NCBI GenBank assembly: GCA_046757025.1
Contig: JBHHXN010000178.1
Coordinates: 1-10,709 of the forward strand
DNA from: a bacterium
GTDB lineage: Bacteria; Zhuqueibacterota; Zhuqueibacteria; Oceanimicrobiales; Oceanimicrobiaceae
Length of the DNA: 10,709 nt
Direction: 5' to 3'
Shown: piece after piece, positions 464 through 10,709 of the stretch
Numbering within the stretch: position 1 is the first letter of the stretch
Layout of the letters: each line of letters begins with the position of its first letter
The notes under the pieces: generated by a model
Databases searched by the model: none
Told to the model about the DNA's origin: nothing
The model's input: the letters and a program-made list of their open reading frames with translations, nothing else
Translations under genes and position numbers: made by a program

Positions 464-1033
464 TTAAGGGTGCCCGCGACTCTCACCGTCGGCGATGGCG
501 CCCGCGATGAGATGTGCGGTGCGAATGGGCTCCGGGATTTGACTGTGAATGGCAAAATGCTCGACGACCTCGGCGGCTTGCGGCAGGTTCAAACCCACGG
601 CCTGTATGAAAATCTGGCCGACCGCTTCGAGCGGTCCCAGCCTCTGAATCAAATCCCATTTTTTTAGACCATCGGAAATTTTGGACATCAGAGCCGTTTT
701 TATGGCGTCCATGTCGGCTGATTTTCGACACACGATCAAAACCGGGATTTTGAGCAGCTCATGAATGTGAAAAGCGTCCACCACATTGAACCCCGCCAGC
801 GTAATGCCCTGCAGCATCATGAGCTGCACGTGCTCAGCAAATTTCGACTCGCCCACCAGCGTCACCAATTTTTTCGCGGCGTCCGAGCCGTCTTTTTCGA
901 TTTCGCCGACGAGCACGCCATCCAAACGTAAATTGGCGTACACCGCGCCGACGACTTTGACTTTGCCCACGTGGTCGCGGTCAAACGGCGCGTCATCCAC
1001 TCCGATGACGTTAGAGTAAGTTTTGCTGGACAT
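464..1033 (-). CDS. DUF99/UPF0215 family protein (endonuclease V-like fold, putative deoxyuridine endonuclease)
   Basis: 189-aa ORF with DUF99-type motifs: N-terminal VIGVDDAPF, DGSDA, MLQGITLAGFNVVD and C-terminal IPEPIRTAHLIA. Start placed at ATG 1033 (MSSKTYS) instead of the TTG at 1054. Confidence 0.88.
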   Translation of the reverse strand: MSSKTYSNVIGVDDAPFDRDHVGKVKVVGAVYANLRLDGVLVGEIEKDGSDAAKKLVTLVGESKFAEHVQLMMLQGITLAGFNVVDAFHIHELLKIPVLIVCRKSADMDAIKTALMSKISDGLKKWDLIQRLGPLEAVGQIFIQAVGLNLPQAAEVVEHFAIHSQIPEPIRTAHLIAGAIADGESRGHP

Positions 1034-1102
1034 GATTGGCTCTTGCGATTGCAAATGACCTCGGCACTTTTATGCAAAAAATCTCCAAAGCCTTTTGAAC
1101 AA

Positions 1103-1230
1103 TTCAAAAAGCAAAGTGAAAAATACAAATTTTAAAGTTGATGCCTTTTCTTATCTTCTCCCATTTTGCAACCTTGGTCCGGGCTTGTTTCCGAAAAGTC
1201 ATTTTGCACCTTGTACTTTCAAATTTGCAA
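1103..1230. repeat. Inverted pair of degenerate 7-mer tandem arrays
   Basis: TTCAAAA AGCAAAG TGAAAAA TACAAAT TTTAAAG (1103-1137) faces ATTTTGC ACCTTGT ACTTTCA AATTTGC (1201-1228). Confidence 0.65.
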
Positions 1231-1375
1231 TTAGTCATTTCGGTTTCACCACGTTGAGAAATAATGAACAAAATGGTCTGTTGAGAGTAAAATTCTTCCT
1301 CAATAAAATCCACATCACGCATAAGCGCCAGGGCACATAGTTGACGCAGAGAAGAATAAAAAATCCACATTCAAT

Positions 1376-3109
1376 TCACATGGAGATGGAGCCTTTCCTG
1401 AAATCGGTTTTGCTCAAATGCGCGTTAAGCAATACTACCTTACCTCGGGCCAGCGCGCTTTTAGCCAGCCGCAGCGCGCCGGTGATCTCCGCAGCCTTGC
1501 GAACCAACAGGCCTTTGCCTCCCAGTGCCTCGGCCATCAAATGGTAGTTGGAATGCTGCAAAACCGTACCCACCTCGTCCTGGAAAATTTCAACTTGTTC
1601 ACGGGCGATTTGCGACCAGCCGGCGTCGTTGCCCACGATGGCTAGCACCGGAATTTCGTGTCGGACAAAGGTGTCGAATTCACACAAGCTGTAACCCAAC
1701 GAGCCGTCGCCAAAAAGAATCCACACGTCGGCATCGGGGCGGCAGAGTTTGGCGCCTAGGGCAAATCCGGCTCCCACCCCCAAAGTGCCGAACACGCCGG
1801 GGTCGAGCCAGGAAAGCGGAGCGCGCGGTTGCACGATGTAAGACGCAGTGGCCACAAAATCGCCGCCATCGGCCACCAGAATGCTGTTCTCTGTCAGCAC
1901 CCGTTCGATTTCACCACACAGGTGCAGCGGATTCACCCGCTCGGTGGGTTCGCACGCTTTTTGCTGGATTTCGGTCTCTCGTGTGTCATCTCTCTGGCGC
2001 AACGTGTTAAGCCAGTCGCGGCAATCATTGGCATGTTTTACCACTTCCGCCAGTTGCACCAGAAACAAACCCGGCTCGCCCTGAATGGCGATGCTGGGCC
2101 GCCGATTTAGCATGAGATCGTGGCGGCTGAGATTGACCGATATCAATTGCGTTGCCCGCGGAATGTGCCGTCCGTAGTTCAAGCGAAAATCGCACGGGAC
2201 GCCGGCCAGGAGAACGAGGTCGGCTTCCTTCAGTGCCAGGCGCCGTTGATGTCGCAACTGCAGCGGGTGCTGCACGCCCAGCAGACCGCGCGCCATGCCA
2301 GACAAATACACGGGAATTTGCAGTTGCGTCACCGCCGAAACCACGGCTTGCAACTGGTTTTTGTGCAGCAGCGCCTGACTGCCGATGAGCAGCAGCGGCT
2401 TTTGGGCTGTGCGCAATTTTTCAGCCACCCTTGATATGCGAGCACGTCCGGGGGCTGGGACGGAAACGGCCTGCGGTTTGGGAATGCGTATTTTGTTGGC
2501 GCCGCTGAACAGTCGGGTGACGTGCTGCTTGAGATACAAATTCAGCGCCCGGTCGGCAACGGTTTGACGGCCGCTTTTTTTCGATTGCACACCGTACCAT
2601 TCGCGCACCAGATCCTCCGAATAAAGCAGGTCGATGGGACATTCCACAAACACGGGGCCAGGGACGCCTTTCTGGGCTTCTCTGAAAGCTTGCGTTACCG
2701 CCGGCGCCAGCTCCCGCACTTTTTGCACGGAACGCGCCCATTTCACATGCGGTTTGAACAGCGCCATCTGGTCGATGTCTTGCAGCGAACCGCGTCCTTT
2801 CAGTGCGGTGGCGGTGGCGCCTCCCAACAAAATGACCGGCGACTGCGCCAGTTGGGCGTTTTTTACGGCCGTGACGGTGTTGGTAGCCCCAGGACCGGCG
2901 GTGACCGCAGCCACCCCGGGTACGCCTGAGAGCCGAGACACCGCGTCCGCTGCGAATACCGCCGTGGCTTCGTGCCGGACGTCGATGACCTGTATTCCGA
3001 GCTGCTTGCAGCCCACGAGGATGGGAGAAATGTGTCCGCCGCACAAAGTGAAAAGAAATTTCACTCCGTGTGCTTTTAAGACTTCAGCTATGAGCTCGCC
3101 GCCGTGCAT
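1376..3109 (-). CDS. Thiamine diphosphate-dependent enzyme, ILVBL/HACL2-like (acetolactate synthase-like / 2-hydroxyacyl-CoA lyase family)
   Basis: 577 aa. [15 protein letters not shown] (catalytic Glu), VTAGPG, ThDP-binding GDGSLG...[13 protein letters not shown], and C-terminal [10 protein letters not shown] typical of the ILVBL subfamily. AGGA upstream of the ATG. Confidence 0.92.
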
Positions 3110-3443: not shown

Positions 3444-3599
3444 CGATTTCCAGGACGTGACACCGACACCTTATACCTCATATCTTATACCCAAAATCAC
3501 AAGCCAGACAACTTTACCCGGCAGCCAAATGTTTATTTCAATTCACAAGAATGAACTTTTTGTTAAAGTATGCCTGCTAATATTTCGATTAATTAATTA

Positions 3600-3746
3600 G
3601 TGTCCATCCGTAATCGTCATTCCCGAATGCTCCCTGCCTACAACATGCAGGGACAAGCTCATCGGGAATCTCATGCCTAACGGACCAATGGATTCCCGCT
3701 TAAAGATTGCGGGAATGACAAAAAATGGCTCTTTACGGATGGACAC
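3600..3746. mobile_element. MITE-like element family 1, copy B (intact ends)
   Basis: 147 bp with perfect 14-bp TIRs GTGTCCATCCGTAA/TTACGGATGGACAC. TAATTA lies on both sides (3594-3599, 3747-3752), giving a 20-bp perfect inverted repeat overall. Confidence 0.9.
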
Positions 3747-3901
3747 TAATTAGCGTCTGGACGACAATTTGTTTTTTCACTTCGAATGGTGACTTTCAGA
3801 TTAAAATTTTCATCATTTTAGCCGGTTCCAAATCGGAATCACGTTATCGACCGAAGAGGAAAACTATTTATTCAACCGTGTCATTCAATGGAGAAAATAC
3901 C

Positions 3902-4561
3902 ATGCGGAATTCGCGTTCATCCCACCAAGAAGAAAAAAAGAGGTATGTTAAAACTTTTGAGCTGGCCTTGATTTTTTCGCTGATCATCCATCTGTGCGTT
4001 CTTCATGCCCTTCCGTCCATCGATGCCAGTTTTTGGTGGACGAAGATAAAAGTAAACGATGTGGTGCTGGAAGTCGAGGACATTCCCAAGACCTTCCAGT
4101 GGCGAAAAAAGCCGCCGCCGCAAAATCCTTTCGTGCCCGTACCCACGGAAACCGAGGACTTTCCAAGCAACGAAACCATCGAGACCGTGGAGGTGGAATT
4201 TGTGGACATTCCAGAACCGCCGCCCTTCGAAAACGGTCTTTTCGAAGAATTTATTTTTATTCCGCATGAGGAGCCGCCCGTACCGATTGGCGGTATGCGC
4301 GCCATCCACCGATTTCTGAGATATCCCAGCAAAGCCTTGCGCCTGGGTGTGGAAGGCAAAGTGGTTTTGGGACTGCTCATCGATGAAAAAGGACATGTTG
4401 TGAAAGCCCAGATTTTAAAACACGCGAAATTCGATGTGGGTTTTGAAGAGGCCGCTTTAAAAGCCGCACTGAAAATCAACTGGAAACCCGCCCGACAACG
4501 CGAACGCGCCGTGAAAGTCTGGTTAGCGCTCCCGGTGCGATTTGAACTGGTGATGATTTAG
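3902..4561 (+). CDS. Energy transducer TonB family protein
   Basis: N-terminal TM helix with S-x3-H (FSLIIH), Pro/Glu-rich linker (KKPPPQNPFVPVPTE, IPEPPP), and TonB C-terminal domain (YPSKALRLGVEGKV...WKPA...VRFEL). ATG 3902 is preceded by GGAGA. The ORF-track start at 3725 lies inside a repeat element. Confidence 0.88.
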   Translation: MRNSRSSHQEEKKRYVKTFELALIFSLIIHLCVLHALPSIDASFWWTKIKVNDVVLEVEDIPKTFQWRKKPPPQNPFVPVPTETEDFPSNETIETVEVEFVDIPEPPPFENGLFEEFIFIPHEEPPVPIGGMRAIHRFLRYPSKALRLGVEGKVVLGLLIDEKGHVVKAQILKHAKFDVGFEEAALKAALKINWKPARQRERAVKVWLALPVRFELVMI

Positions 4562-4645
4562 GCGCTACGCCAAACATCGACAAATTGTTGTGTCGATATG
4601 TTGAAGGGTCTAAAATCGCACATCAATATAAAATTGAGTATCTCA

Positions 4646-4727
4646 GATTGCGGAATTCGGAAGGTGGAAGGGTGTTTGATAAACGATTGACCTGTAAATT
4701 CCGAAATCCGCCATCCCCCATCCGCAA
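4646..4727. repeat. Inverted pair of degenerate 7-mer tandem arrays (GGA/TCC phase)
   Basis: TTGCGGA ATTCGGA AGGTGGA faces TCCGAAA TCCGCCA TCCCCCA TCCGCAA. Confidence 0.7.
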
Positions 4728-4771
4728 GCAAAGTTTTTCGGATTTCCCTTGCGCTTTACAGCGTCAGCTCT

Positions 4772-4797
4772 CTTTTCGCAAAAACGTTTGCGAAAAG
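4772..4797. terminator. Putative bidirectional terminator hairpin between convergent tonB-like and Fe-S membrane genes
   Basis: Perfect 11-bp stem CTTTTCGCAAA-aacg-TTTGCGAAAAG between two convergent stop codons. The U-tract is weak. Confidence 0.45.
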
Positions 4798-4843
4798 GTT
4801 TGGAATTCTTTTTTTGAAATTTCGCTATTCCGTTCTTAAAATT

Positions 4844-6376
4844 TTACATGGCCGTGCGCATTTCCATGGGTTGGGCAATGAGCCACAAACTCAACACCGA
4901 AAACATCACCATCAAAGTGATCATGGGTATCTGGCTTTTCAGGGCGGAGATTTTATCGGAAAAGATCGTGTGCGAATGCGTGTTTGAGATGACCACACCA
5001 AAAACGTGACCGACGATCACCAGCCCCACTTGTAAAAACCAGATCGCTTGCAGACTCAAAAGCGAGCCCACCTGCATGTCAGCCGTCCCAAAAATATTCC
5101 AGCCGTAGCCAAAAGGATCGGACAAGAGCACCAGCAGTTTTTGACTTTCCATGAAAAAATGCTCCACGTTGTGGGCGAGGTGGTAAAACAGCGCGATGGG
5201 TATCAGGCCATAAGCATACTTCGTGAATAGGCTAAAAATGGATTTCTGGCTTTCACCCGAAAATATTTTCGACAACCAAACAGACAGCCCATAGATTAAA
5301 ACCGGTAAAGTCAGGCTGATCAGCATCCCCAAAGAAAAGGCCGCCAACTCGCCGACCGAGATGGTTTGTTGAATATTTTGCACAAAACTTTTCCAGTTTG
5401 GCGTCATGGTCAGACCATGAAAGGCCGTCAGCGAAAAAAGGATCAAAGCCAGATAGGCTTCGTCTTTTTTTGGTTTAGGCGCGTGTAGCAGATCCGCGGC
5501 AAACGGCCGCACATTGAACGCGACATTATCGTATTTGCAGGTTCGAAAACACTCTGCACACATGGTGCAATAGGTGTTGGCGGTCATGGTTTTTAAATAC
5601 TGACCCGTGGGGCAGGGGTAGCCGGTGCCGTTGCCCTTCAAGCAATCCGCGGTTTTGCAATTACTGCAAATATCCAGATCTCGGGGGCGGATTTCTACCG
5701 GCGAGAACATGGCATAAAGTCCACTCACCCGGCCGATGAGACAACCGTAGCGGCAGAACGATTTTTTCTCGAACAGCAGTCCGGGGACGAACACCAGGCC
5801 GAACATGAGCAGACCCAGGGTGGCGGTGGCTTCCGGGCTGAGGGTGACGTGATAGCCGAGCTCCAGCCAGGTTAGAAAAACGAACAGGATGGTAGCAAGA
5901 TAAATGTTTTTGAAAAAGCGCGGCCAGCGCCAGCCGAGATTGACGGTATCCTGTTTGATCTTGAAAAAAGAAAGTCGGGTGAGCCAGTTGGTCAGGGCGT
6001 CCCAGGGGCAGACATAACACCACATTTTGCCGAAAAACAAAATCAGAAAAATCAAGCCGATCCACCAGATATTCCAGGTCAGGGTGGGTGCGATGTTTTC
6101 CCCGGGAAGCTGGTTGCCATAAAAGCCCGCAAACAGGATGGTCAAAAACAGCAACACAACGATAAATTGAATGGCCGCCTGTACTTTTCTGGATTTAAAG
6201 AAAATTTTAAACAGCCTGTATTGGGTTAATTCCCATTTGCGTGTTTGGGCCAATCCTTTGTTTTTGTGCTTGAGCATTTCCAGAATGCCGAAGGAGACCA
6301 GCATGATGATCACGATGGATGAATAGTACAGCCAGTCCGGTATGCCAGCCATATTTTGACAGTGGGACATTTCCAT
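4844..6376 (-). CDS. Polytopic membrane 4Fe-4S binding protein (NapH/FixG-related polyferredoxin with extra C-terminal TM domain)
   Basis: 510 aa with many hydrophobic segments. Motifs GKMWCYVCP, FCRYGCLIG, CSNCKTADC...CP and CTMCAECFRTC. C-terminal TM part carries histidines (AFHG, YHLAHNVEH, GHVFG). Confidence 0.85.
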   Translation of the reverse strand: MEMSHCQNMAGIPDWLYYSSIVIIMLVSFGILEMLKHKNKGLAQTRKWELTQYRLFKIFFKSRKVQAAIQFIVVLLFLTILFAGFYGNQLPGENIAPTLTWNIWWIGLIFLILFFGKMWCYVCPWDALTNWLTRLSFFKIKQDTVNLGWRWPRFFKNIYLATILFVFLTWLELGYHVTLSPEATATLGLLMFGLVFVPGLLFEKKSFCRYGCLIGRVSGLYAMFSPVEIRPRDLDICSNCKTADCLKGNGTGYPCPTGQYLKTMTANTYCTMCAECFRTCKYDNVAFNVRPFAADLLHAPKPKKDEAYLALILFSLTAFHGLTMTPNWKSFVQNIQQTISVGELAAFSLGMLISLTLPVLIYGLSVWLSKIFSGESQKSIFSLFTKYAYGLIPIALFYHLAHNVEHFFMESQKLLVLLSDPFGYGWNIFGTADMQVGSLLSLQAIWFLQVGLVIVGHVFGVVISNTHSHTIFSDKISALKSQIPMITLMVMFSVLSLWLIAQPMEMRTAM

Positions 6377-6473
6377 TCTTCAATCCTAAAATATTTTCAT
6401 GTGGCAGAAAATCACGTTAAATAATCAAGGTAAAATCACTGGCAGATAAAATACTTTTCTCTTATCAGATCTT

Positions 6474-7082
6474 TTAAATCGAATGTGCGCCTTCACGGTT
6501 GATTCGGTCCGGTAAAATTTTTATGGCATTCCCTGGCGCCGGGCAAAAATACTCGCAAATGCCGCAGCCGGTGCATTTTTCCACGATGACCCGGGGTTTG
6601 TCATCTTCCATGACGATGGCGGCGTTTTTAAGCGGGCAGCGGTCGAAACAGTAGTCGCACATCTGCACCTGACCATTGTAAGCAAAGCACTTGTTGTAGA
6701 TCAGGTGCGCCGTACCCATTTTGAATTCTTTTACGGGCAGCAGAACGCCTTCCGCACAGGCGTTCACACACGGCAAATCTTCGCAAAGATAGCAGGGCGC
6801 TTCCGCGGGCCTGAGCATGGGGGTATCCACGCCGGAGCCGTATTTAGCGTCCGCCCGCACGATGGCGTCGTGGGGACAGGCCTCGATGCATTTATCGCAA
6901 CGGGTACACTTGAGCAAAAAGGAAATCTCATCGATGGCGCCAGGCGGCCGCAGCACAGGAATGATCATTTTTCGGGCTCGGGCTTCCACCTGGTTTTCCA
7001 ACGTTTCCGCCGTAAATCGGAACAGCGATTTCAACCCATCACGCAAAAAATCAGAGCGGGTCATGTTTTTATTATGGGTCAT
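6474..7082 (-). CDS. NapG/NapF/MauM-type 4x[4Fe-4S] ferredoxin, probably cytoplasmic
   Basis: LRPPGA motif followed by four Cys groups (CTRCDKCIEACP; CYLCEDLPCVNAC; C...CDYCFDRCP; CTGCGICEYFCP). N-terminal TRSDFLR lacks the twin arginine and has no hydrophobic region. Alternative start at ATG 7064. Confidence 0.88.
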   Translation of the reverse strand: MTHNKNMTRSDFLRDGLKSLFRFTAETLENQVEARARKMIIPVLRPPGAIDEISFLLKCTRCDKCIEACPHDAIVRADAKYGSGVDTPMLRPAEAPCYLCEDLPCVNACAEGVLLPVKEFKMGTAHLIYNKCFAYNGQVQMCDYCFDRCPLKNAAIVMEDDKPRVIVEKCTGCGICEYFCPAPGNAIKILPDRINREGAHSI

Positions 7083-7269
7083 CGTGAAATGTATTTCGAT
7101 TTAAAATTCATCATTTTCATTTTTTTTGTTGACGCTCCTTTTTTTCCCTTTAAGAGGGAATGAAAGGATGTGTTTTATCAACTTGACTTTTTTATCGTGA
7201 TTAAAATCCCAATGGCCTCGAAGGGCCAGGTGTTTCAATTAATTTTTGTAATTCTGGGTAATTGACAAA

Positions 7270-7830
7270 TCAGACCCTTTTACCCTGACGTTTTTTAGTC
7301 AATCCCACACCGATAAAAATAACTAAAAATACCGCTCCAAAAATGATCGGCACCATGTTAAAATTGGTCTTGCCGATGACAATCGGGAAAGGAATTTTTT
7401 CGAAAAAATCCGCTCTCGGTTCAAACTTCACGTTGATGTAGAACTTTTCGGCTTCCTTAAATTCGTAGCTCATTTTGTATTCGTTGTAATCGCAGGCCAC
7501 GGTTTTGGGTGCGACAATTTCCTGTTCGCCGCCAAAAAACGTTTCCTGGCTAACCGACATTTGGATGGGTTTGGTATAAACTTCTCCCGTGAGTTTGTGT
7601 TTGATGTAGGTTTTAATGCGGACTATTTGACCCGGCCGGGGATTTCCAGGAAAAATCGAAAACGTCACCAGGTAACCTTCGGCGTCTGCCTCAATGACCA
7701 TGGTCGGAATTTGCGGGTAATCCTTTGAATAGAGATAATGCGGCAGCCCCAGTTGGTGATGGGCCTGCCCCTGACTCGCAAAGATGACGATTCCAAAAAA
7801 AATACTGAAAATATATTTGAGTATTTTCAT
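7270..7830 (-). CDS. Hypothetical exported protein with C-terminal membrane anchor; predicted mature N-terminus HHQLGLPHY
   Basis: AAGGAG 12 nt upstream of ATG 7830. Sec-type signal MKILKYIFSIFFGIVIFASQGQA, beta-rich-looking middle region, and C-terminal TM plus basic tail (VPIIFGAVFLVIFIGVGLTKKR). Starts 21 bp after the stop of the upstream ferredoxin. Confidence 0.82.
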   Translation of the reverse strand: MKILKYIFSIFFGIVIFASQGQAHHQLGLPHYLYSKDYPQIPTMVIEADAEGYLVTFSIFPGNPRPGQIVRIKTYIKHKLTGEVYTKPIQMSVSQETFFGGEQEIVAPKTVACDYNEYKMSYEFKEAEKFYINVKFEPRADFFEKIPFPIVIGKTNFNMVPIIFGAVFLVIFIGVGLTKKRQGKRV

Positions 7831-7851
7831 GATGAACAACCGCTCCTTAAG

Positions 7852-8427
7852 TTAGGTTTTTACAATCCGGATGGCTTTAACTTTTTGTAAGCACACTTCT
7901 TCACACAATCCGCAGCCCACACATTTTTCGTCGATGACTTTCGGGTATCTTTGCATGTCCAGATTAACGGCATTGAGCGGACAGACGGTGTAACAGGCAC
8001 CGCATCCGCCCTGATTGATGTACGGCAAGCACAAATTTTCCTCCAGCACCGCCAGCCCCATTTTCACTTCTTCCATTTTGTTCAATGGACTCAAGGCACC
8101 CGTGGGACAAACACGCGTGCACTCCAGACACAAATCGCAGGCCGCCTCAGCGGCGACGATGTACGGGGTGTGCGGCGTGACTATGCCCTGGAAATCTTCC
8201 TCAAAAAACTGAATGGCATGACGATCGCAGACCTCCGCGCAAACGTCGCAATGGATGCAGCGCTGTAAAAAGTCCGTCTCCGGAAGCGCGCCCGGTGGCC
8301 GCAAATAATTGCTTTGCTGGTAAGCAAAACGGTAGAGTCTTTTCGCGGGTCGGGAATCATCCCGGCACCCCAGCACTCCGGCCAGAAAGCCAGCGCTAAT
8401 CAGTTTTAAACAATTTCGCCTATTCAT
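7852..8427 (-). CDS. NapG/MauM-type 4x[4Fe-4S] ferredoxin with Tat signal and lipobox (putative Tat lipoprotein)
   Basis: MNRRNCLK-(hydrophobic)-VLGC N-terminus, LRPPGALPE, four Cys groups (CIHCDVCAEVC; CDLCLECTRVCP; C...CGACYTVCP; CVGCGLCEEVC), and GGAGAAG RBS. Confidence 0.9.
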   Translation of the reverse strand: MNRRNCLKLISAGFLAGVLGCRDDSRPAKRLYRFAYQQSNYLRPPGALPETDFLQRCIHCDVCAEVCDRHAIQFFEEDFQGIVTPHTPYIVAAEAACDLCLECTRVCPTGALSPLNKMEEVKMGLAVLEENLCLPYINQGGCGACYTVCPLNAVNLDMQRYPKVIDEKCVGCGLCEEVCLQKVKAIRIVKT

Positions 8428-8485
8428 GTATTATACTTCTCCAATCGATTTCTTGTGAACACGATTGGAAATGGGTCTTTTCTAA

Positions 8486-8646
8486 GTGCTCCATTTCAGA
8501 AATGGTTGTAGGGTTCACTAGAGATAATAGCAGCTACCGATCTTCGCCCTTCGACGTCGCGCAGGGTGAAGATCATGGTTTCCCGAATGTGAATTGGGAC
8601 TCAGCATGAAGATAGGTACCCAATAATCAATTTTGAAATGGAATAC
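8486..8646. mobile_element. MITE-like element family 3
   Basis: 161 bp with imperfect ~22-bp TIRs GTGCTCCATTTCAGAAATGGTT / AATCAATTTTGAAATGGAATAC. TAA directly repeated on both flanks. Internal hairpin GATCTTCGCCCT...AGGGTGAAGATC. Confidence 0.75.
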
Positions 8647-8750
8647 TAAGTAAAGGTTAAATTGACTTTTCAAGCTCATGCTTTTTTACGTCCTCTTTTA
8701 CAGTTGGCGTTTTATAGTATTAACACTGAACTTTTGCATTTTTTTGCCAA

Positions 8751-8868
8751 GAAAAACAAAAATCAAAAACCGGAAACCGAAATTCGTCGTCTATAGATTT
8801 TGAAATAGACAAGCCAACTCTGGAATTCCTTTTTGCGAATTTCGCTTTTCGGTTTGCGGCTTTTCGCT
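8751..8868. repeat. Inverted pair of degenerate 7-mer tandem arrays overlapping the 3' end of the napH-like CDS
   Basis: AAAATCA AAAACCG GAAACCG AAATTCG (ending 8786) faces CGAATTT CGCTTTT CGGTTTG CGGCTTT TCGCT (8836-8868). Inner hairpin GTCTAT...ATAGAC. Confidence 0.7.
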
Positions 8869-9779
8869 ACATTAGGATTTTCACCGTTTGGCGTTCTGTT
8901 AAATCCAAACGTATATTTTAGCGCGCCGGGTTTGCACACTGAGATGCACAACCCACACTGATCGCAATCAGCTTTTAGCTCACGGGTCATGGGTTTCAAA
9001 TCGTAGGGACAAACGGGCAGGCAATCGCCACATTGGTCGCAAAACTGGTCGTTACGTTCGATTTTTAGCCACTTCCATCGCGACAGCGCCGTGTAAACCG
9101 CTCCGCCGGGACAGATGTACCGGCACCACCAGCGCCGCGAAAGGATCAGCTCCACAAAACAGATGGCACCAATCAACAAAAGACCGTTGCTCCAGAAACC
9201 GTTGTAAATCTTGTAAAAGAGCTCGCGGCTGATAACCGCCGGCGGGTAGATCAGCGACAGCAAAGGACGGCCGGCCAGAAAAGCCGCCAGCAAACCGATG
9301 AGCAGCACCCAAAATTTGGTTTGCTTTTTAAATCGAACATCCCGGGTGTGGTAGCCGATTTTTTCCAGCAGCCGGCGCATTTTGTCGTTGATTTCCAGTA
9401 AGAGATGCATGGGACACAGCCAGCCGCAGTAAACTCGCCCCAGGGTAACGGTGAAAAACAACGGCACCAGCAGCGACAGCAGCATGGGCAGATAAAAATA
9501 AACCGCGGTGGTGGTGGATTCCAGCACTGCCAGCGGATCGCTGATTCGAAATCCGAAAAAGTTGATGGTCCACACCGAGCCCTTGACCTGGTGCGACAGC
9601 TCGATGACTTGACTGCGATCCTGGCCTTTGAACAAGAGGTGGATGGCGCGCAAGGCTTTGGAATTCTCGATGGCATAGTCGTCTTTTTGCTCCACTTTGA
9701 TGCCATAAAAATTAAAAAGCGGAATCAAAATGAGCAGCGCGATGACGGCGATTTGTACGATTCGTCTAACTATTTGCAC
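8763..9779 (-). CDS. NapH/MauN-type membrane quinol dehydrogenase ferredoxin subunit
   Basis: RRIVQ N-terminus, ISDPLAVLE, GRVYCGWLCP, RWWCRYICPGG, CDQCGDCLPVCP and DCDQCGLCISVC. Start placed at GTG 9779 (AGGAG upstream; overlaps the end of the upstream napG-like gene by 14 bp) instead of 9884. Confidence 0.9.
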   Translation of the reverse strand: MQIVRRIVQIAVIALLILIPLFNFYGIKVEQKDDYAIENSKALRAIHLLFKGQDRSQVIELSHQVKGSVWTINFFGFRISDPLAVLESTTTAVYFYLPMLLSLLVPLFFTVTLGRVYCGWLCPMHLLLEINDKMRRLLEKIGYHTRDVRFKKQTKFWVLLIGLLAAFLAGRPLLSLIYPPAVISRELFYKIYNGFWSNGLLLIGAICFVELILSRRWWCRYICPGGAVYTALSRWKWLKIERNDQFCDQCGDCLPVCPYDLKPMTRELKADCDQCGLCISVCKPGALKYTFGFNRTPNGENPNVAKSRKPKSEIRKKEFQSWLVYFKIYRRRISVSGF

Positions 9780-10410
9780 TCTGATGGCCGCTCCTGGTCT
9801 GGTGGTAAGGAATGACTTTAATCGCCTGGGGGTAATGATAGCAGATTCTTTCGCAAAGTCCGCAGCCCACGCATTTTTCAGCAACCAGGACAGGTTTCTC
9901 CCACGCCCCGATTTTTAGCGCTTCATCCTGCAGAGGACAGGCGCGATAACACACACCGCAGATTCGGTTGTTGTATGAATAACAGAGGTCGGTATCCAGT
10001 ACCGCTACGCCCATGGCGACCTGGGTTTTGATGGACGCCAGATCATTTTGCAGCGGCTGCAGCGCCCCCGAAGGACAAACCTGGTTGCATTTCATGCACA
10101 GAATGCAGCCTTGCGCACGCGGGATGATGTGCGGTGTGCCGGCACATTCGCCCGACCCGATGTCGAAAAAGCGGATGCATTGATTGGGACAGACGTCGCC
10201 GCACAAGCCGCAACGAATGCACTTTTTCAGGAATTCATTTTCGGGTAGCGCGCCAGGCGGACGCAGAAATCGCAAGCGTGTGCTGCTTGGCAGCCATCTT
10301 AAAAATGAGAAAAAGTACACGCCCAATCCCAGCAGACTGTATTTTAAGACCTCCCGCCGGGATTTTTTGCCGCTGAGATTAGCAAAAAGATTTTTAAATA
10401 CACCCATCAT
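9766..10410 (-). CDS. NapG/MauM-type 4x[4Fe-4S] ferredoxin with Tat signal
   Basis: SRREVLK plus hydrophobic stretch, LRPPGALPENEF, four Cys groups (CIRCGLCGDVCP; CILCMKCNQVCP; C...CGVCYRACP; CVGCGLCERIC), and GTP motif. Overlaps the napH-like gene. Confidence 0.92.
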   Translation of the reverse strand: MMGVFKNLFANLSGKKSRREVLKYSLLGLGVYFFSFLRWLPSSTRLRFLRPPGALPENEFLKKCIRCGLCGDVCPNQCIRFFDIGSGECAGTPHIIPRAQGCILCMKCNQVCPSGALQPLQNDLASIKTQVAMGVAVLDTDLCYSYNNRICGVCYRACPLQDEALKIGAWEKPVLVAEKCVGCGLCERICYHYPQAIKVIPYHQTRSGHQSANS

Positions 10411-10433
10411 TTTATTAACCTGAATAATTCACA

Positions 10434-10568
10434 GCCACGAAGTCCCTAAGACACAAAGTATGTAAATATTGAGTAAAATTGAATTGAAAAGATTACCTCA
10501 GAAAACTCAGTTTTAAATTCATGCTTGTTGTAGATTATTTATTCTTAGTGACTTTGTGAATTTGTGGC
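10434..10568. repeat. Inverted pair of degenerate 9-mer tandem arrays around an AT-rich core
   Basis: GCCACGAAG TCCCTAAGA CACAAAG (10434-10458) versus CTTAGTGAC TTTGTGAAT TTGTGGC (10544-10568); 19/25 complementary. Confidence 0.75.
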
Positions 10569-10626
10569 GAAAGTTTATGAGTCATGCAGGTTGACAACTT
10601 AAGGTTTAATAAAATACCATACGCTT

Positions 10627-10694: not shown

Positions 10695-10709
10695 CCTGAA
10701 TAATTCCTA

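Follow-up and report, generated by a model that had tools for sequence, protein, structure and literature searches.

Which redox enzyme is served by a cluster of iron-sulfur genes beside which no such enzyme is encoded? The question is raised by a contig of 10,709 nucleotides (JBHHXN010000178.1, here C178, assembly GCA_046757025.1) from a bacterium of the family Oceanimicrobiaceae (Zhuqueibacterota), which was analysed at its full length and is called the window below. Six co-oriented minus-strand open reading frames occupy positions 4844..10410, as a preliminary description of the sequence had reported: those of three ferredoxins (G1, G2, G3), of two iron-sulfur membrane proteins (H and M) and of a His-His protein (X; Table 1). 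The Cys motifs of G1, G2, G3, H and M could bind 4+4+4+2+2 = 16 [4Fe-4S] clusters, if all sites are occupied, which agrees with the earlier count of about 16. No terminal enzyme was in view then and none lies inside the window, because the window is the whole of contig C178, one piece of a 5.96-Mb genome. Sequencing runs that contain this DNA stem from a single hydrothermal-vent study, possibly its very source, and no RNA run is listed among them. An earlier suggestion was that the partner of the module is a redox enzyme whose gene lies beyond position 10709, and such an enzyme was indeed found, upstream of the module in relatives and split over two further contigs in this genome; the guess that it would be a multiheme/HAO-like or a copper enzyme was wrong, since it is a molybdoenzyme of the Nap/Nas group (here the Mo enzyme). 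Judging from sequence comparison, the six genes are rather probably the conserved downstream accessory half of an operon for a Nap/Nas-group molybdoenzyme, predicted to be exported, whose likely reaction is the periplasmic reduction of nitrate to nitrite; the likely part of the six genes is to carry quinol-linked electrons to this enzyme and to help in its maturation.

The X-anchored search gave four relatives among 40 other genomes, together with loci in other phyla. In genomes G014 (locus L014) and G001 (L015) the operon is intact and runs in the order FAD/Fe-S oxidoreductase, Rieske protein, cytochrome b, octaheme cytochrome c, Mo enzyme, G1, H, G2, X, G3 and M, with G1 directly after the Mo enzyme, while locus L012 holds the same gene set with the Mo gene moved to the end. 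In the genome under study (G000) the first four upstream genes and the 5′ part of the Mo gene end contig C170, and the 3′ part of the Mo gene starts contig C355; the upstream genes on these contigs are 70-89% identical to those of the relatives, and about 100 codons of the Mo gene are absent between C170 and C355. The last 55 nt of C355 are the last 55 nt of the window, overlaps of this sort being present at 106 of the 748 contig ends of the genome, and if the two contigs are joined the Mo stop codon falls about 860 nt before G1. It speaks against this arrangement that the C355-C178 join lies inside a repeat and that no public contig bridges the junction, so that the join rests on overlap together with synteny. 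The unbridged repeat and the absent codons would also fit a module that is an orphan in this genome, with C178 not adjoining the Mo gene, yet this is very improbable: the exact 55-mer occurs in the genome at these two contig ends only, orientation and order agree with G014 and G001, and each operon gene has one close copy in the genome.

Other partners were considered and rejected. For NosZ, no TIGR04246 match over cut-off was found in this 94.8%-complete genome, just four weak CuA-domain matches; as for an HAO or multiheme partner, the upstream octaheme cytochrome consists mostly of c4-like domains, and the other octahemes of the genome adjoin the canonical nap genes on contig C12; the standard nap genes form a separate locus (C12:30464-35930). 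The region upstream of the module is not a standard nap operon, nor is it one of the clade II nos type: NosZ does not pass its cut-off in the genome, and no NapB or NapD match stands beside the enzyme. The region C12:26666-52886 comprises a canonical napDAGHB(F) operon, two octaheme cytochromes and an alternative-complex-III-like set, and also holds another FAD/Fe-S, Rieske, cytochrome b and multiheme module. On C170 (197-3670) a cytochrome c oxidase subunit II gene is divergent from the operon and two regulators lie directly upstream of it, which we take to be Rrf2-like; one such regulator is also upstream in G001.

The Mo enzyme is a separate clade of the Nap/Nas group and is not a NapA. The G014 ortholog (906 amino acids, aa) carries a twin-arginine (Tat) signal and Molybdopterin, Fe4S4 and dinucleotide-binding domains, and among PDB entries the enzyme is matched best by a periplasmic nitrate reductase (E 3.9e-73). 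Over residues 55-600 its 120 best database relatives show 63-100% identity; identity to the genome's own NapA is about 27% and to Nas about 28-31% (plasmid-borne Nas included, about 30%). In trees of 14 references and 26 (or 6) clade members, both quick searches, the clade forms one long branch with support 100, it lies outside the Nas branches, and NapA is one branch that excludes it (support 99 and 96), so that it is not nested within NapA. The Fe-S Cys motif and the Lys are retained in the enzyme, and so are the ligand Cys with a Met behind it and, within the GQP motif, Gln and Arg; the enzyme shares with NapA the Tat signal, the N-terminal [4Fe-4S] cluster and the Cys ligand before Met. 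This Cys-Met pair is found in all 26 aligned clade members, in place of the Cys/Sec-His of formate dehydrogenases, and the Tat motif sets the enzyme apart from Nas, which is cytoplasmic and without export signal and whose cut-off is not reached. The roles of the active-site positions are presumed here from the Nap literature, that on Desulfovibrio desulfuricans included.

That the extra genes would be conserved together was borne out: H, X, G and M genes recur at loci of the Mo clade, and the reverse search anchored on X agrees. A metagenome scan with the Mo enzyme gave at least 530 relatives, the best 80 of which are described here with near-duplicates kept. Among the 48 of these loci with at least 5.5 kb downstream, H is present in 48, X in 47, M in 37, two or more G genes in 47 and three in 29, and NapD and NapB were each found in 0/48, with single-query BLAST as a less sensitive search. 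All 40/40 loci with at least 4.5 kb upstream hold a c-type cytochrome that matches, in most cases a diheme protein of about 220 aa. Of the best 80, 34 have a NapC/NirT cytochrome, 10 a MoaA-type cluster, 6 a sensor/regulator pair whose domains we read as NarX/NarL-like and 4 FNR/CRP, and in L031 a cytochrome cd1 nitrite reductase cluster lies directly upstream of the operon; these neighbours hint at nitrate as the substrate. In the phylum of genome G167, X is present in 20 of 401 genomes, and the 19 new X-anchored loci comprise 13 with the Mo clade, 4 that end at a contig break upstream and 2 without it; in the phylum of the genome under study, X and the Mo clade are found in the same four relatives among 167 genomes, and in the genome itself. 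Since kin are not independent, these counts express linkage and are not a statistical test. The operon is found in vent, sediment and low-oxygen marine lineages, with records named SAR324, Poribacteria, Magnetococcales, Myxococcales and Thiohalobacter; Thiohalobacter sp. IOR34 (WP_289930467.1) is a cultured carrier. In genome G013 (100% complete), which has the Mo enzyme, neither NapA nor NarG passes its cut-off and NapD is absent, a further hint at nitrate; in G000, G001 and G014 napD (PF03927) stands beside other Nap-type genes and nowhere else, and none was found in G013 or G168.

Several observations weigh against a nitrate reductase operon of this composition. On NapA, Nas and Fdh models the G014 ortholog scores 287-321 bits, far under every cut-off, with 287.4 against 930.55 (TIGR01706) and 312.2 against 904 (PRK13532) for NapA, and on the NasC model it scores 227.6 against 1100; the genome's own NapA on C12 passes the NapA cut-off with 1008. 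The sister position of the clade to NapA has support of just 85 and 74. The FAD, Rieske and cytochrome b genes stand in just 2 of the 40 metagenome loci with at least 4.5 kb upstream, L040 has the Mo enzyme but no G or H in its 3.8 kb downstream, and two X loci are without Mo enzyme, L136 (8095-11510), which keeps G-H-X-M-G, and L146 (9769-10533), a lone X. A canonical NapA is also carried by G000, G001 and G014, three of the six genomes checked, which would make a second nitrate reductase redundant. Moreover, Ile replaces the Met of the motif W-x-M-G-x-N-Q (that of NapA and most NasA) in 26/26 members, an invariant His follows six residues past the changed Met and an acidic residue is shifted ahead of the Arg; the Met-to-Ile change and the clade-specific His imply that the substrate may differ. 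One may ask, then, if the same wiring serves another oxyanion or an N- or S-oxide of the kind common in low-oxygen marine settings (e.g., selenate, chlorate, iodate or an N-oxide), with X and M needed for that chemistry. The long and strongly conserved branch, the altered active-site surroundings, the co-occurring NapA and a dedicated accessory set seen in no Nap operon examined would all suit such an enzyme, which we nevertheless hold to be unlikely: nitrate reductases have the same Cys-Met ligand motif and, in the GQP motif, the same Gln and Arg, the NarX/NarL-like, FNR and cd1 neighbours also speak for nitrate, and known selenate and chlorate reductases belong to other branches. Iodate reductases were likewise placed in another branch in the relevant passages of the MopB survey (PMC10100899).

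The upstream genes join FAD/Fe-S oxidoreductase, Rieske protein, cytochrome b and multiheme cytochrome c in one cluster, which is the set found in anammox bacteria. Five hemes of the octaheme cytochrome lie in c4-like domains, cytochrome b and subunit IV are one chain, and at two potential-tuning positions the Rieske protein has Ser but Phe, the pattern of Kustd1480, for which +335 mV was measured. Nap enzymes are generally one-way reductases. It was proposed, in the passages of PMC12954380 that deal with these complexes, that they make NAD(P)H by bifurcation, and a module suited to NAD(P)H production could also work with a Mo enzyme that runs oxidatively, on nitrite, a reduced sulfur compound or a one-carbon compound for instance, the electrons passing via the cytochrome into Rieske/cytochrome b or NapGH and by reverse transport to NAD(P)+. 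Clade members in sulfur oxidisers and one Nitrospinaceae record are in line with this, while the NapGH-, NapC- and NapF-type partners are typical of reductases and the ligand is not followed by the His of formate dehydrogenases; with the one-way habit of Nap enzymes added, we regard an oxidative role as quite unlikely.

Table 1. Features of the operon half and its surroundings in the window (aa, amino acids; TM, transmembrane).
Feature	Position	Strand	Remarks
G1, NapG/MauM-type ferredoxin	9766..10410	minus	214 aa; 4 predicted [4Fe-4S]; Tat motif and hydrophobic stretch
H, NapH-type membrane polyferredoxin	8763..9779	minus	338 aa; likely GTG start; 2 predicted clusters
G2, second NapG-type ferredoxin	7852..8427	minus	191 aa; Tat motif; possible lipobox Cys21
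X, His-His protein	7270..7830	minus	186 aa; signal peptide, Ig/YtkA-like beta sandwich, C-terminal TM anchor
G3, 16-Cys ferredoxin without export h-region	6474..7082	minus	202 aa; NapF-like, likely cytoplasmic
M, NapH-related N-terminal half and C-terminal membrane domain	4844..6376	minus	510 aa; 2 predicted clusters
Exact 55-nt overlap with end of contig C355	10655..10709		inside repeat; C355 holds 3′ part of Mo gene
Two dispersed repeats, about 25 genome copies each	8482-8652 and 8710-8880		enlarge H-G2 spacer

The module had been described as containing three NapG paralogs, which is correct for G1 and G2 and has to be revised for G3. Both G1 and G2 have 18 Cys, four Cys clusters and an arginine pair followed by a hydrophobic stretch (hydrophobicity about 2.0, vs 0.41 in G3), as NapG/MauM proteins do; G3 looks more like NapF, with 16 Cys, again room for four ferredoxin-type clusters, and the stretch is absent. 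In the profile search all five iron-sulfur proteins matched NapG/MauM or NapH models under the curated cut-offs: G1 reached 138.9 (cut-off 269) on one of these models, G1 and G2 reached 116.9 and 92.2 on the NapG/MauM model (178.85), and H and M 143.1 and 35.1 on the NapH model (213.05), while G3 scored 69.8 on the NapF model (102.2). In the ferredoxin tree G1 and G2 are sister paralogs (support 97) and together sister to NapG (support 82), and G3-type proteins, which have no hydrophobic stretch, fall outside this group; the NapF rows are long branches of unsure placement, and three rows labelled G2 are G3 genes, the true G2 having been missed by the filter. G3 is likely cytoplasmic and NapF-like, judged from its four Cys clusters and the lack of a functional export signal, and one database protein (P0311) carries G3 fused behind the C-terminal anchor of X, as would be expected if G3 is cytoplasmic. 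Like NapH, H has about four TM helices and two CxxxCP motifs, and it has eight cluster Cys; its start overlaps the end of G1 and its last codons extend into a dispersed repeat. An additional G-H gene pair stands beside the operon in L137, L141, L144 and L145. According to the relevant passages of the cited papers, NapF is cytoplasmic and tied to NapA maturation, and NapA is inactive upon NapD loss (PMC10609526), while Nap of Campylobacter jejuni requires the Qcr complex and NapGH was suggested to act in reductive maturation (PMC6195509).

X, labelled earlier as an unknown His-His protein, begins with His-His after its signal peptide and has no match in Pfam and NCBIfam. In the wider X family, rows with a residue at the position concerned have His at mature position 1 in 143/148 and at position 2 in 145/148, and a third His is present in 103/151 rows. 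In the structural model (predicted local distance difference test, pLDDT, 83.4) two helices flank a beta sandwich, and the His-His segment is poorly predicted. The best fold match of X is Helicobacter pylori CrdA (Z 12.7, rmsd 2.5, 106 residues aligned), tied with alpha-2-macroglobulin (Z 12.2), and structural look-alikes are named YtkA-like, 18% of one cluster of them carrying PF13115. In CrdA, as far as the source describes it (PMC9182242), copper is bound by Met and His is absent, hence no function can be assigned to X from its fold by itself. Fusions of X to H or to M are frequent, single H-X-M frames exist, and the NapH-type Fer4_5 domain is found on 15 of 50 X relatives scanned.

M contains one CxxCP motif, one CxxxC motif and eight further Cys, and its N-terminal half is NapH-related (probability 97.6). 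Residues H320, M324, H399, H402, H406, E410 and M504 are invariant in 41/41 operon members and absent from the paralog of M on contig C103, and H402 is retained in all five distant relatives of M examined. Foldseek gave no match to M at E 0.001 or better and the best VIA match has Z 7.0, which does not establish a new fold. X is predicted to bind M: the model of the complex scores 0.67 (best control 0.00, although the controls may lack a membrane helix), a mark reached by 116/157 solved and 2/215 mismatched pairs; the model runs have 70% or more of their contacts in common, with a partner pLDDT of 76 or higher, and the confident interface sets the anchor helix of X against the NapH-like helices of M. 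X and M are likely a membrane pair that binds a transition metal, with copper as the first guess, and the M histidines may ligate heme b. In G001 a second, partial M copy lies downstream of the full gene (L015:1666-2406). A protein of about 770 aa that replaces M in some loci was considered as an M variant and rejected, being a DUF255 thioredoxin protein; such a DUF255 thioredoxin-domain protein is near the operon in 9/80 loci (downstream of G3 in L023, L024, L033, L053 and L056).

These features also raise the question whether the six genes are an independent metal-handling and Fe-S module, similar to the CcoG cupric reductase with a chaperone, that just accompanies the Mo enzyme and works for copper enzymes encoded at other places. 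CcoG is a membrane-bound Fe-S protein that reduces Cu(II) and has an Ig domain (PMC7558416), the C103 paralog of M (30% identity, C103:8705-18367) sits between two CuA-motif proteins, G-H-X-M-G occurs once without a Mo gene (L136), and one of the distant relatives of M is encoded upstream of an operon for a copper membrane monooxygenase. Nonetheless, near-perfect linkage to the Mo clade makes this improbable, M has no match to the CcoG model (TIGR02745), H matches it at just E 1e-4, and the neighbourhoods of four of the five distant M relatives are without copper enzyme. The fifth, on a plasmid of Mycobacterium dioxanotrophicus (L152:3555-10786), lacks the Fe-S motifs and stands with two His-rich secreted proteins directly upstream of a pmoCAB-like copper monooxygenase operon; Pfam assigned no family to the neighbours of the distant M relatives, whose cupredoxin-like look was judged by eye. 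On C103 a FAD/Fe-S, Rieske, cytochrome b and octaheme module, the third in the genome, follows the M paralog, and no terminal enzyme was seen on that contig. A bolder proposal is that the respiratory molybdoenzyme is of a new class and depends on a second metal: X and M would take up copper (or another transition metal), reduce it, and either pass it on to the enzyme or employ it as a redox site themselves, the clade-specific His near Mo would bind the metal or a non-nitrate substrate, and NAD(P)H would arise by quinol bifurcation in the anammox-type bc complex of this lineage; we consider it quite unlikely.

For the operon of a putative exported nitrate reductase we infer a mechanism from what was observed: the order and conservation of the genes, the enzyme's motifs and its separate clade, and that NapB and NapD gave no match. 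Menaquinol would be oxidised by the Rieske/cytochrome b pair, and electrons would pass via the octaheme cytochrome, whose c4-like domains would replace NapB, to the [4Fe-4S] and Mo centres of the enzyme; the FAD/Fe-S protein of this lineage may receive the second electron and form NAD(P)H, as proposed for the anammox complexes. Most relatives, which are without the FAD/Rieske/cytochrome b part, would use a diheme cytochrome c and often a NapC-type cytochrome instead. H with G1 and G2 would make up a quinol dehydrogenase of the NapGH type that supplies electrons or brings about reductive activation, and G3 a cytoplasmic NapF-type partner. X and M would combine a periplasmic His-His site with a His/Met-lined membrane domain and provide metal for maturation or take part in electron transfer.

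The remainder of the window is occupied by repeats and genes of other kinds. Short dispersed repeat families (64-395, 3583-3767, 4558-4798, 8482-8652, 8710-8880 and 10410-10591), with 12 to about 109 genome matches, occupy spacers, enlarge operon gaps, supply the last codons of H and coincide with contig breaks. A gene for a stand-alone TonB C-terminal domain protein (3725-4561, plus strand) converges on the operon; it was rejected as an operon member, lying on the opposite strand and not being kept beside the operon in relatives. Positions 464-3109 (minus strand) encode a thiamine-pyrophosphate-dependent enzyme (577 aa), whose best NCBIfam matches, acetolactate synthase and 2-hydroxyacyl-CoA lyase, are under cut-off, and endonuclease dU; both are unrelated to the module.

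Apparently, this is an undescribed Nap-like respiratory operon with a widespread and unstudied enzyme: no description of it was found in the main texts of the open-access literature, and the passages of the MopB survey concerned (PMC10100899) note mixed Nap/Nas-like basal branches and not the operon. The contig link, the division of G1, G2 and G3 and the evidence for a predicted X-M metal-binding pair are new here. Curated NapA, Nas and NarG profiles fail to name the Mo enzyme. Should nitrate be what it reduces, nitrate respirers are undercounted in surveys, as G013, without another respiratory nitrate reductase over cut-off, illustrates; if it does not, a widespread respiratory substrate awaits naming. 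As an anammox-type NAD(P)-linked bc complex would here be tied to a simple terminal enzyme, this variant would simplify a test of the bifurcation proposal. A new and testable candidate for a metal-binding module is the X-M pair, which may also clarify the role of NapGH-type proteins.

How does the operon compare with the systems already known? In CcoG/YccM with YtkA/CrdA, too, a periplasmic Ig-like domain goes together with a membrane protein that has Cys-Pro motifs and a pair of Fe-S clusters. However, M has CxxCP and not CxxxCP and an extra His/Met membrane domain, the Ig domain of CcoG is fused C-terminally whereas here it is on the separate protein X, and X, unlike CrdA, has His-His and no Met cluster. 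NasA, NasC and NarB have the motifs CPYCGVGC, GSD-x-P and GQPNAMG in common with the Mo enzyme, which differs from them by its Tat signal and by the lack of nirBD or a flavoprotein partner in the operons examined. The anammox complexes Kustd1480-1485 and Kuste4569-4574 (PMC12954380), likened here by the description in the relevant part of the source, have the same four types of electron-transfer proteins, but in the present operon the high-potential acceptor would be the Mo enzyme, and cytochrome b and subunit IV form one chain. A precedent for Rieske/cytochrome b and NapGH both serving a periplasmic nitrate reductase is given by the Caldithrix abyssi nap cluster with Rieske/cytochrome b (PMC5317091) and by the Qcr-dependent Nap of C. 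jejuni (PMC6195509); in these the enzyme is a NapA with NapM or NapB, and the passages concerned describe no flavoprotein, X or M. Finally, Nap with NapGH/NapF (E. coli napFDAGHBC; monomeric NapA, PDB 2NAP/2JIO) likewise has a Tat-signal molybdenum-bis(pyranopterin guanine dinucleotide) enzyme with N-terminal [4Fe-4S] cluster and Cys-Met motif, NapG-, NapH- and NapF-type partners and, often nearby, a NapC-type cytochrome; the enzyme of the present operon differs by its separate clade, by a c4-like diheme or octaheme partner where no NapD or NapB match is seen, by the Met-to-Ile change near its active site, and by the addition of a second NapG, X and M.

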